A DNA stretch of 64,000 bases, taken from NCBI RefSeq assembly GCF_053078305.1, contig NZ_CP166879.1. One strand, written 5' to 3'. The notes under the pieces were generated by a model. It was not told where the DNA came from. It searched no databases and was given only the letters and a program-made list of their open reading frames with translations. A program made the position numbers and the translations under genes. Below, piece after piece: positions 1 to 2,330 of the stretch (positions are counted from its first letter, which is position 1; each line of letters begins with the position of its first letter).

Positions 1-896
1 AAACCGTGCACTGACAGAAAACGGGAAACCTCCGTCCGCTGATCATCACTCATTAAGGACCACACAAAGGCGTTATGCTCATCTTCAAGTTTCCGTCTTC
101 TTGTTTGCCTTACAAGCAACTCAGCCGTCACCTGTACAATGTCAATGACCTCCTTCTCTTCAGCAATGTACGGCCTGTTCCAGTTGTCTGTGTTAATCTT
201 CTCCGTCACCGGCGCTGACTTTTTGCAAGTTTCCCCATTAAACCCGACGCCATAAACAACAACATCATCGCTTTGCTTTTCGTTATCAATAATGACGAAT
301 AATACAGAAACCGATGTATCAGCGAACCCGCCTGAAATCTGAACCAACTCAACAACGCGGTTGCCAAAATACTGACGCATTGCCAGCTCACCACGCCTGT
401 AACCAACCCCGGGAAAGCACAAAAAAAATGAAAATCTTGCCTTCATGCTCGCCAGAACATAAAACGCGTCATCCAGAACACCGGAGGTCTTTTTATAAGG
501 CATCATCGCTGAAATCTTCTCCCTGATATCCGCGCTCTGTGCTTTGTACTGTAGCGAAAAAGGCGGATTCATGATGACACAATCGAACGTGTCCGTGTCA
601 CTGACATCATCGATGGCGTTGAAGAAATTTTCATTGACCGTCTTCACTGTGGCATCCGGGAAATTATCCGGGATATGCACCAACGGAGAGGCCTGTATAT
701 CCACAGCATACAGACTTCCCACCGTGAGAAACTGCTCCAGTTGCCCGGAGCCACACGCACCATCAAAAATACTCAGGGGCAGATCACCACAATATTCCCG
801 CACTTTTTCAGCGACAAACCGACGCAAAGGAACGGACGTGATGTACTCTGCGTATTTTCTGGCGACATCGCGATTATTGGACTCCTGAAAAACCAT
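1..896 (-). CDS. DNA N6-adenine methyltransferase, gamma-class; N-terminal 298 codons only, gene continues past the window start
   Basis: Open frame from ATG at 896 to position 1 with no stop; motif I FDGACGSGQ then motif IV IMNPPF about 57 aa later; weak RBS; not in the ORF track because no stop lies in the window. Confidence 0.55.
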   Translation of the reverse strand, partial: MVFQESNNRDVARKYAEYITSVPLRRFVAEKVREYCGDLPLSIFDGACGSGQLEQFLTVGSLYAVDIQASPLVHIPDNFPDATVKTVNENFFNAIDDVSDTDTFDCVIMNPPFSLQYKAQSADIREKISAMMPYKKTSGVLDDAFYVLASMKARFSFFLCFPGVGYRRGELAMRQYFGNRVVELVQISGGFADTSVSVLFVIIDNEKQSDDVVVYGVGFNGETCKKSAPVTEKINTDNWNRPYIAEEKEVIDIVQVTAELLVRQTRRRKLEDEHNAFVWSLMSDDQRTEVSRFLSVHG

Positions 897-981
897 TTGT
901 GAAAGGCTCTGTGGTTGATATGCGCCGGGCGTGGCGCGGAGGCAAAAAAGGCCCACAAAAGCGAGCCAGGAAAAATAAGTG

Positions 982-1058
982 TGGTGCGTTGTACTGGATT
1001 CGAACCAGTGACCGATTGCTTAGAAGGCAATTGCTCTGTCCGGCTGAGCTAACAACGC
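982..1058 (-). tRNA. Phage-encoded tRNA-Arg (anticodon UCU)
   Basis: 77-nt cloverleaf by hand folding: acceptor GCGTTGT/ACAACGC, anticodon stem ATTGC/GCAAT, loop CTTCTAA, T-loop TTCGAAT, 3' CCA. Confidence 0.75.
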
Positions 1059-1071
1059 AGTGTACAGATAA

Positions 1072-1148
1072 TGGACCGCCATCGAGGACTCGAACCCCGC
1101 GCAACCAGCTTCGAAGGCTGGCGCTCTATCCCGATGAGCTAATGGCGG
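1072..1148 (-). tRNA. Phage-encoded tRNA-Arg (anticodon UCG)
   Basis: 77-nt cloverleaf: acceptor CCGCCAT/ATGGCGG, anticodon stem CCAGC/GCTGG, loop CTTCGAA, T-loop TTCGAGT, 3' CCA. Confidence 0.7.
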
Positions 1149-1155
1149 TATGTGA

Positions 1156-1231
1156 TGGTGGCCCTTGCTGGATTTGAACCAGCGACCTGGCGATTATGAG
1201 TCGCTCGCTCTCACCACTGAGCTAAAGGGCC
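1156..1231 (-). tRNA. Phage-encoded tRNA-Ile2-like (anticodon CAU, lysidine type; Met not excluded)
   Basis: 76-nt cloverleaf closely resembling E. coli ileX as I recall it; anticodon loop CTCATAA; 3' CCA. Confidence 0.7.
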
Positions 1232-1271
1232 GGGCGCAGGATAATAACGGTACGTAACTAATCCTGCAATA

Positions 1272-2330
1272 TCATCCGTTCTGACTGGCTAAATCCTGAA
1301 CTTCCCTGACCGTCTGCTCAAAACGTTCAGTCTCCAGCTCAACGCCAGTTGCACGACGCCCCAGCGCCATCGCTGCTTTGACTGTCGAACCCGACCCCAT
1401 GAAAAAATCTGCAACCAGGTCACCCGGACGACTGCTCGCGCTGATTATCTGCTGCAGCATTTCTGCCGGTTTTTCGCACGGATGTTTCCCGGGATAGTAC
1501 TGCACCGGTTTATGCGTCCACACATCGGTGTACGGCACCTGCGCCGTCACGCCAAAATACCGCCGCAGATGCTTATATTCACTCTGCAGTTCCGTATAGT
1601 GTCGGTTCAGTTCACTGTATGTGCTGACCAGTTGGTGATGTGGCTTTTCCAGTTCTCCGCGCTGATGCTTCTCTTCTGCCACCCGGGCAAACAGCGCCTG
1701 TAATTTCAGATAATCGCTTTCGTCCGGTAGCTGCCACTGACTGGCACTGAACCAGTGCGACACCATGTTTTTCTTTCCTGTGGCATCAGCAATCTGTTTT
1801 GCCGTTATCCCCAGGGCAGCACGTGCATCACGAAAGTAAGCAATCAGCGGGGCCATCACATGCTGTTTCAGTGCCCTGCCCTTCGCCTCATACCCGGCAT
1901 CTTTCGGACGATACGGCCCCTGATAATGTTCCGCGAACAGAATGCGCTCTGTGGCGGGGAAATACGCCCTCAGGCTTTCCTTGTTGCACCCGTTCCAGCG
2001 TCCGGACGGCTTCGCCCAGATAATATGGTTCAGCACACTGAAGCGTTCACGCATCATGATTTCAATGTCAGATGCCAGGCGATGGCCACAGAACAGGTAA
2101 AGACTTCCGGCAGGTTTCAGCACCCGCCAGAACTGCGCCAGACACTGGTCCAGCCACTTCAGGTAATCATCGTCGCCCTTCCACTGGTTATCCCAGCCCT
2201 CAGGCTTCACTTTAAAGTACGGCGGGTCCGTGACTATCAGGTCAACAGAATTTTCGGGTAACGACCGGATAAATTCCAGGCAGTCGGCGTTGATTAACTC
2301 ACAACTGGATATTTTTACAGTATTAAGCAT
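1272..2330 (-). CDS. DNA methyltransferase, beta-class (N6-adenine or N4-cytosine), prophage orphan type
   Basis: 352-aa ORF; motif IV DPPY near the N-terminus (LIVTDPPYF) and motif I FxGxG near the C-terminus (DFFMGSGST). Confidence 0.8.
   Translation of the reverse strand: MLNTVKISSCELINADCLEFIRSLPENSVDLIVTDPPYFKVKPEGWDNQWKGDDDYLKWLDQCLAQFWRVLKPAGSLYLFCGHRLASDIEIMMRERFSVLNHIIWAKPSGRWNGCNKESLRAYFPATERILFAEHYQGPYRPKDAGYEAKGRALKQHVMAPLIAYFRDARAALGITAKQIADATGKKNMVSHWFSASQWQLPDESDYLKLQALFARVAEEKHQRGELEKPHHQLVSTYSELNRHYTELQSEYKHLRRYFGVTAQVPYTDVWTHKPVQYYPGKHPCEKPAEMLQQIISASSRPGDLVADFFMGSGSTVKAAMALGRRATGVELETERFEQTVREVQDLASQNG

Follow-up and report, generated by a model that had tools for sequence, protein, structure and literature searches.

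Why should a prophage carry two DNA methyltransferases of different classes in its late operon, and does the second of them open a larger system? The question is raised by the left end of a 64,000-nucleotide (nt) stretch of contig NZ_CP166879.1 (assembly GCF_053078305.1), here called the window, where a lambdoid prophage encodes, in this order and all on the minus strand, a Q-like late antiterminator, a first methyltransferase (MTase 1), a cluster of transfer RNAs (tRNAs) and a second methyltransferase (MTase 2) that runs off the window. A first-pass annotation had read MTase 1 as a beta-class enzyme at 1272-2330 (DPPY, then FxGxG), followed by tRNA-Ile/Arg/Arg and by a gamma-class enzyme (FDGACGSG, then NPPF) in the position of stx in Shiga toxin (Stx) phages, and had offered as explanations either anti-restriction self-protection or the start of a restriction-modification (RM) or other defence module. 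The gene order and both class assignments are upheld here, as is the position of MTase 2, by comparison with an Stx2a phage. What stands is therefore a pair of methyltransferases of different classes flanking the tRNAs; what falls is the defence module, and self-protection would now be the best-supported reading. We consider it probable that the two are solitary orphan adenine methyltransferases of the prophage late operon, outside any RM or defence system, that protect progeny DNA.

MTase 1, MTase 2 and the sequence beyond the window edge

MTase 1 matches PF01555 (N6_N4_Mtase) from end to end (3.4e-43), and has DPPY at residues 35-38 (VTDPPYF) and FMGSGST at residues 310-316 (FFMGSGST), the beta-class motif order, in which motif IV (DPPY) is N-terminal, motif I (FxGxG) is C-terminal and the target-recognition region is central. 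Missed in the first-pass annotation was its membership of the characterised M.EcoGI/M.EcoGII family. It is identical at 333 of 348 residues (about 96%) to M.EcoGII from the prophage of E. coli O104:H4 C227-11, as given in the supplement of PMC11551740, and some of the approximately 15 substitutions are probably reading errors in that comparison sequence. M.EcoGII is 349 amino acids (aa) long, against 352 for MTase 1; both are prophage-borne and have the same motif order, and M.EcoGI and M.EcoGII themselves share 333 of 349 residues. Window positions 944-2500, containing MTase 1 and the tRNAs, have 97.1% nucleotide identity with phage 1720a-02, named by Murray et al. as bearing an enzyme very similar to M.EcoGII (PMC5778455). 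M.EcoGII methylates adenine in any sequence context, is unexpressed in the lysogen and is harmful if constitutive (PMC5778455); a review groups it with “Trojan horse” protective modifiers that are on only at exit from the cell (PMC12707154), and methylome work on E. coli that produce Shiga toxin (STEC) took relatives at 92–93% amino-acid similarity to be non-specific and silent (PMC6602927). MTase 1 is, on sequence grounds, a member of this already known enzyme family in its usual place, and should methylate adenines essentially without sequence specificity. Because it belongs to the M.EcoGII family no further explanation is needed for it.

The start codon of MTase 2 is an ATG at 896, from which the frame stays open up to base 1, so that 298 codons lie in the window. 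The Prokaryotic Genome Annotation Pipeline (PGAP) variously calls the gene at 288, 311 or 338 aa; the 311-aa start is backed by the N-termini of 50 homologs and by a 936-nt PGAP coding sequence in E. coli 2012EL-2448. The sequence past the edge was read from near-identical genomes. Window 1-2500 is 99.9% identical to a locus of E. coli 2013C-3033 (L001), with three mismatches of which one is V73L, and at least 99.2% identical to nine more complete genomes. In L001 the gene lies at 13605-14540 and encodes 311 aa, and in all near-identical genomes examined the stop falls 40 nt past the window edge. There follows in L001 about 1 kb without genes, occupied by tandem matches to the small RNA (sRNA) STnc100 (RF02076), each strong copy terminating in a terminator hairpin, and then a SASA/NanS-p esterase, DUF1378, DUF826, holin, lysozyme, Rz and terminase. 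The downstream layout is the same in 2012EL-2448 and 2015C-3121.

Extension to the left, proposed in the first-pass annotation as a check, thus ran from the stop of a 311-aa methyltransferase through sRNAs and nanS-p to lysis and terminase genes, an outcome that the first-pass annotation had itself listed as refuting the module. No endonuclease, helicase, HsdS, HsdR or other nuclease partner was annotated in the stretches of the L001 prophage that were read, and PADLOC gave only weak matches, to methyltransferase models. With respect to a Type II system, no cognate endonuclease adjoins either gene: MTase 1 lies between a small conserved open reading frame (ORF) matching phrog_331 and the tRNAs, and the neighbours of MTase 2 are tRNAs and sRNA genes. 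With respect to a Type I system, MTase 2 differs in having no HsdM N-terminal domain and no linked hsdS or hsdR; a linked hsdS was found neither in the cassette described below nor in the L001 stretches read, and a linked hsdR neither here nor at any annotated relative locus inspected.

Cassette borders were mapped by comparing L001 with one Stx2a phage (Stx2a_1447) and with the prophage of ABU 83972. The block of Q, small ORF, methylase and ileZ/argN/argO was common to all three at 95–97% identity, while after the last tRNA there stood stxAB in Stx2a_1447, terB and DUF3927 in ABU 83972, and MTase 2 in L001. Homology with ABU 83972 stops at L001 13600, which is window 901 and 5 nt short of the ATG; it restarts at L001 14596, 56 nt past the MTase 2 stop, which makes the insert 995 bp with a single gene; the breakpoints against the Stx2a phage are at L001 13568 and 14608. 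One STnc100 repeat unit aligned in the Stx2a phage and two in the ABU 83972 prophage. The GC content of the cassette is 47%, versus 53–57% in its neighbours MTase 1 and nanS-p. MTase 2 occupies the cargo (moron) slot between ileZ-argN-argO and STnc100/nanS-p/lysis, a position with conserved flanks and variable content. The late region of Stx2 phages has the same order as the window (Q, methylase, ileZ argN argO, cargo, nanS-p, lysis) and 95–97% nucleotide identity, first as far as the last tRNA and then from STnc100/nanS-p onward, but carries stxAB where there is here one methyltransferase gene.

Of 5426 complete E. coli genomes, 11 carried the cassette, always on the chromosome, as a single copy and with no less than 99.4% identity; ten of these carriers are human isolates and one is from food. 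The region of MTase 1 and the tRNAs matched, at least in part, 3298 genomes and 294 phage records, mostly Stx phages. MTase 2 is a rare, recently acquired one-gene orphan methyltransferase cassette in the stx slot. The meaning of this is modest: the slot for Shiga toxin in Stx phages can instead hold a predicted anti-restriction methyltransferase, and a handful of human STEC-type isolates have a lambdoid prophage with two different adenine methyltransferases. A search for methylome or strain literature on cassette carriers turned up nothing useful. In 2015C-3121 an IS1 element lies between argO and MTase 2 (L101 3051-3748).

The HsdM-like family of MTase 2

MTase 2 contains AEYITS at residues 16-21, FDGACGSG at 44-51 and NPPF(S) at 110-113, in the order X, I, IV (NPPF) and VIII and without a recognition domain interposed between I and IV; these motifs were invariant across a 51-sequence alignment, with D45, G46, G49, G51, N110, P112 and F113 among the invariant catalytic and S-adenosylmethionine (SAM)-binding residues. 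Profile search supported the assignment through phrog_6380 “DNA methyltransferase” (2e-78). Matches to general libraries were weak (Pfam MTS 1e-3, N6_Mtase (PF02384) 2.4e-3, TIGR00497 hsdM 4.7e-6), and many relatives have a precomputed PF02384 match. An AlphaFold (AF2) model made from the 51-sequence alignment, with a predicted local distance difference test (pLDDT) of 92.5 and a predicted template modelling score (pTM) of 0.78, contains a Rossmann core together with a small beta module (residues 211-233) and two C-terminal helices (residues 253-296), and closes with a short hairpin. Its best structural matches were HsdM, M.TaqI, M.BseCI and CamA, consistent with the catalytic-domain fold.

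The family profile aligned to residues 196-417 of EcoR124 HsdM (2e-16); a further alignment, weak but collinear, covered the C-terminal helix of that protein (473-513). MTase 2 has only about 40 residues before motif I, and approximately the first 190 residues of HsdM, its N-terminal domain, are absent. Since the alignment begins at HsdM residue 196, MTase 2 corresponds to an HsdM-type catalytic core without that domain. With HsdM proteins (EcoR124I; S. thermophilus 3LKD) it shares the Rossmann core, the X-I-IV-VIII order, NPPF, FPGxxYR and the C-terminal helical tail. It differs in that HsdM has the N-terminal domain and a hydrophobic C-terminal helix, whereas the helix of MTase 2 is basic and neither hsdS nor hsdR is nearby.

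There were 596 relatives in a large protein collection, nearly all of 270–330 aa and many on phage-sized contigs, and 327 in the viral contigs of IMG/VR; in a phage GenBank collection none was closer than 43% identity. In the plasmid collection PLSDB the only relatives were in two mis-filed Neisseria gonorrhoeae chromosomes of 2.17 Mb. Relatives are phage-borne, and a restriction gene was present at none of the loci inspected. Their positions vary: one lies in the nin region of a Providencia prophage, another is an opposite-strand moron within a structural module, one of 49% identity stands between a Q-like gene and a holin, one adjoins a HindIII-like methylase in Streptococcus phage Javan169, and one is first in a row of three methyltransferases in Mannheimia phage 587AP2. 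In Fusobacterium phage FNU_1P and in one metagenomic prophage a short specificity subunit follows directly, annotated in the former as “restriction endonuclease subunit S” and matching PF01420 in the latter.

This arrangement proved common. Among 80 of the 327 IMG/VR loci taken into the analysis, 56 had an HsdS-like ORF, mostly of about 180 aa, whose start is at the methylase stop or 4 nt ahead of it. The result is a two-gene module of an HsdM core of about 305 aa and a translationally coupled half-size HsdS of 150–225 aa and variable sequence, without HsdR, which looks like a phage-borne minimal Type I methylase; no description of it was found in the literature searched, nor was any experimentally characterised member of the MTase 2 family. 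These phage pairs, for example in FNU_1P and IMG/VR, are homologous to MTase 2 at 38–45% identity and likewise phage-borne and without a restriction subunit, but they have a coupled specificity gene of about 180–225 aa and the E. coli clade does not. In a neighbour-joining tree the E. coli MTase 2 fell in a deep clade in which no member has an S gene and which also contains the Providencia, L005, L014 and L027/28 lineages; its sister group consists of S-linked and other S-less lineages. A hidden Markov model built from the S proteins of relatives had no match at any locus of the E. coli clade.

The two forms differ in the helix that follows a conserved E-x-IDI motif. In S-linked proteins it is hydrophobic, with a mean of 1.2 Lys+Arg per 30 residues, versus 3–10 in the long-standing S-less clades, the E. 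coli helix reading RQTRRRKLEDE. A few S-less sequences nested within the S-linked clade retain the hydrophobic helix. As the sequences are related, the split is a correlation across a few lineages and falls short of statistical proof. Within the locus it is MTase 2 that is worth following, as a member of an HsdM-core phage family split into forms with and without a half-HsdS. The S-less branch raises a mechanistic question that is small but real, its choice of target would bear on the minimal requirements of a Type I-type methylase, and MTase 2 might supply another broad-specificity adenine methylase tool.

Other proposals about MTase 2 were rejected. No homology was shown with Hia5, Hin1523 and Nme1821, which are Dam-like alpha-class enzymes, nor with M.EcoGIX, a plasmid single-strand-specific enzyme. 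A special rare-codon dependence on the tRNA cluster was discarded, the sum of ATA, AGA, AGG and CGA per 100 codons being 4.7 in Q, 3.2 in MTase 2 and 1.5–2.3 in neighbours.

Proposed function and alternative explanations

The protective function that we favour would operate as follows. A pR'-like promoter candidate at the end of Q would drive both methyltransferase genes from behind three terminator-like hairpins, and with both genes downstream of these they should be silent in the lysogen. After induction, Q-modified RNA polymerase would read through the terminators and both genes would be transcribed, so that replicating phage DNA would be methylated before packaging and progeny DNA would enter its next host with protection against restriction in place. 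MTase 1 would lay down near-blanket N6-methyladenine. MTase 2 would by itself methylate adenine at N6, either with low specificity or at a short motif, and the small beta module and the basic helices of its C-terminus would possibly stand in for HsdS. A simple scan detected no sigma-70-like promoter upstream of either gene; the pR' candidate of the window scores 8/12, just below the scanner cut-off, and the homologous L001 site at 10869-10897 scores 9/12. In lifestyle the two enzymes may be likened to M.CsaIII, M.BceSVII, Hia5/Hin1523/Nme1821 and Mu Mom, which are also small orphan modifiers, encoded late or at the end of the phage genes, silent in lysogens and believed to protect DNA on export. 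Hia5 and its relatives are alpha-class enzymes whose DPPY lies near residue 194, Mom is an acyltransferase, and no homology with MTase 2 was shown.

Several points weigh against this reading. Canonical HsdM needs HsdS for DNA binding, and no characterised S-less HsdM-core enzyme of the MTase 2 family was found in the literature searched. An AlphaFold run on a tandem fusion of two MTase 2 copies (30-residue linker), modelling a homodimer, was uninformative at a pTM of 0.41 and a pLDDT of 75.9 with an alignment of 12 sequences. Timing and function at the locus are inferred from its sequence, and the M.EcoGII sequence set against MTase 1 is machine-read text of the supplement, with obvious reading errors in it. 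The promoter scan missed the pR'-like promoter itself and is thus insensitive, so that MTase 2 could have a weak private promoter; stx genes have a private promoter. In the L001 prophage the small terminase and portal are frameshifted, so that copy may no longer be inducible; these frameshifts may reflect a defective prophage or sequencing errors. Lastly, a second adenine methyltransferase looks redundant if MTase 1 methylates every adenine. However, in vivo methylation by Hia5 was incomplete in published work, and two carriers among those with annotation that was read, 2012EL-2448 (L010 3671-4719) and 2015C-3121 (L101 1671-2719), have an M.EcoGII-like gene annotated as frameshifted beside an intact MTase 2, which together make the pairing less redundant than it looks.

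Four other explanations, and one variant, may be set beside that of two late protective enzymes. It is unlikely, in our view, that MTase 2 stands for a so far uncharacterised family of minimal Type I methylases in phages, made up of an HsdM core and an optional half-HsdS, whose S-less E. coli lineage either hijacks the HsdS of the host or lacks a recognition domain altogether. The hijack in its specific form, with MTase 2 as a stripped-down HsdM that borrows a host Type I HsdS to form methylation-competent complexes unable to recruit HsdR, is quite unlikely, although attractive: if true, the host's exact methylation pattern would be copied onto phage DNA and restriction possibly poisoned. It would fit the HsdM-like core, the missing N-terminal domain, the weak collinear alignment of the C-terminal helix with the S-binding helix of EcoR124 HsdM, and the half-HsdS coupled to most relatives in phage contigs, which indicates that the fold can work with an S subunit. 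It would not account for the deep divergence over which the E. coli clade has been S-less, nor for a C-terminal helix that is basic where S-linked members have a hydrophobic one; and because the M-S interface is not the same from one host Type I family to another, a single phage protein is unlikely to fit many hosts. The hijack is disfavoured by the remodelled helix and the long S-less history.

It is similarly doubtful that MTase 2 is a lysogenic-conversion gene, expressed from its own promoter as an epigenetic regulator of host genes. Residence in the cargo slot of stxAB and terB could suggest this, as could the human origin of ten of ten carriers with host metadata (the eleventh being from food), and the insensitive scan leaves room for a promoter. 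Yet a terminator-like hairpin lies immediately upstream of MTase 2, no promoter-like site was found by the scan between argO and the ATG, and the relatives in other phages belong to early or late operons or to arrays of methyltransferases and not to conversion modules.

It is very unlikely that MTase 2 is a passenger without activity or a gene in decay, or that it methylates RNA or protein instead of DNA. The weak Pfam matches, including the generic MTS, the presence of PrmC among NCBIfam matches and the label “predicted RNA methylase” given by one source to a relative would be in keeping with this, and the carrier copies are too alike to reveal selection. The ORF is, however, intact in 11 of 11 carriers, and the catalytic and SAM motifs do not vary within a family of several hundred relatives (596 by protein search, 327 in viral contigs); the structural neighbours also speak against this reading, and relatives pair with DNA specificity subunits. 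Finally, that MTase 2 is the first gene of an RM or defence module past the window edge, as an ORF running off the window before extension and one RefSeq record of a “type I restriction-modification system subunit M” might have implied, is scarcely credible and is refuted for the 11 sequenced carriers by the shared stop, the sRNAs, esterase and lysis genes that come next, the single gene of the cassette, and PADLOC matches that were weak and to methyltransferase models only.

Further features of the window and of related prophages

Coordinates are collected in Table 1. The tRNA with anticodon CAT was called Met by ARAGORN and tRNA-Ile/ileZ by PGAP and in Stx-phage records. The small ORF matching phrog_331 is a hypothetical protein in L001, L008 and L009, and its PGAP version in relatives is 65 aa. 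Between Q of the window and the Q named by PGAP in L001 identity is only 73%, yet the DNA from 2500 leftwards is 99.9% identical, which indicates a mosaic junction between approximately 2500 and 2890. For the first 9 kb of the window the best match among complete E. coli genomes covers 79%; the prophage is mosaic. In several carriers a gene for a PemK/MazF-family toxin and an extra small ORF are inserted between Q and the phrog_331 ORF; the window, compared at 2715-2890, is without this insert.

Table 1. Positions of features in the window and at related loci. Positions refer to the window unless preceded by a locus handle (L001 and L100, E. coli 2013C-3033; L010, 2012EL-2448; L101, 2015C-3121; other handles, loci of MTase 2 relatives).
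Feature	Position	Strand	Remarks
DUF968/NinG-like gene	3948-4997	minus	
rusA	3573-3935	minus	
Q-like late antiterminator, 231 aa	2891-3586	minus	phrog_304 “anti-termination protein Q-like”, 2e-103
pR'-like promoter candidate, TTGCAA-17-TATGTT	2879-2907	minus	overlaps Q stop codon; predicted from sequence
tR'-like intrinsic terminator hairpin and T-run	2809-2821	minus	about 60 nt downstream of promoter candidate; terminator scan
Small conserved ORF	2481-2714	minus	phrog_331, 7e-38
Second terminator-like hairpin	2477-2494	minus	just upstream of MTase 1; terminator scan
MTase 1, 352 aa	1272-2330	minus	beta-class N6-adenine, PF01555
tRNA-Ile2, ileZ-type, anticodon CAT	1156-1231	minus	
tRNA-Arg, argN-type, TCG	1072-1148	minus	
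tRNA-Arg, argO-type, TCT	982-1058	minus	
Third terminator-like hairpin	950-967	minus	between argO and MTase 2; terminator scan
Window part of 995-bp cassette	1-900	minus	upstream junction 900/901; other 95 bp beyond base 1
MTase 2, codons 1-298 of 311	1-896	minus	gamma-class, HsdM-core-like
STnc100 matches	L001 14641-14847, 14888-15061, 15127-15339		two strong (135, 165 bits), one weak
PemK/MazF insert	L001 11079-11480; L010 2636-2980; L101 636-980		compared with window 2715-2890
Two-gene HsdM-core/half-HsdS module	L013, L015, L017-L018 and 50 of IMG/VR loci L029-L099		
Neisseria gonorrhoeae relative of MTase 2, 315 aa	L102 4001-4948 (NZ_CP119142.1)		39% identity; no adjacent HsdS
hok/sok-type antitoxin RNA RF01794	6707-6882	minus	121 bits; within prophage nin region
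123-aa ORF	5773-6144	plus	within prophage nin region, near RF01794
DicF / isrK / C4-type RNA	14243-14294, 14542-14618, 14644-14731	plus	
Integrase gene	18523-19548	plus	abuts tRNA-Ser
tRNA-Ser (CGA)	19601-19690	minus	
tRNA-Asn, four copies	20682-20757, 35406-35481, 37230-37305, 39638-39713		host region beyond prophage
2691-aa ORF	20995-29070		host region beyond prophage
Histidine operon leader	54151-54274		host region beyond prophage
Frameshifted small terminase and portal, and further cargo, of the 2013C-3033 prophage (entered together)	L001 22846-23408; L100 26113-28859, 2306-6298, 7230-8474, 18193-19347		

The early region of the prophage has on the plus strand a cluster of regulatory RNAs comprising DicF, isrK and a C4-type antisense RNA. 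The 123-aa ORF in the nin region may be the RelE/ParE-family toxin annotated in genomes that match that region. The junction of the integrase gene with tRNA-Ser probably marks the end of the prophage. In 2013C-3033 the far end of the prophage abuts a truncated ompW pseudogene, and the different ends, at ompW there versus tRNA-Ser in the window, indicate that the same late module travels on different prophages. The 2013C-3033 prophage carries as further cargo an S6-family autotransporter peptidase, a YadA-like adhesin and an OmpC-like porin.

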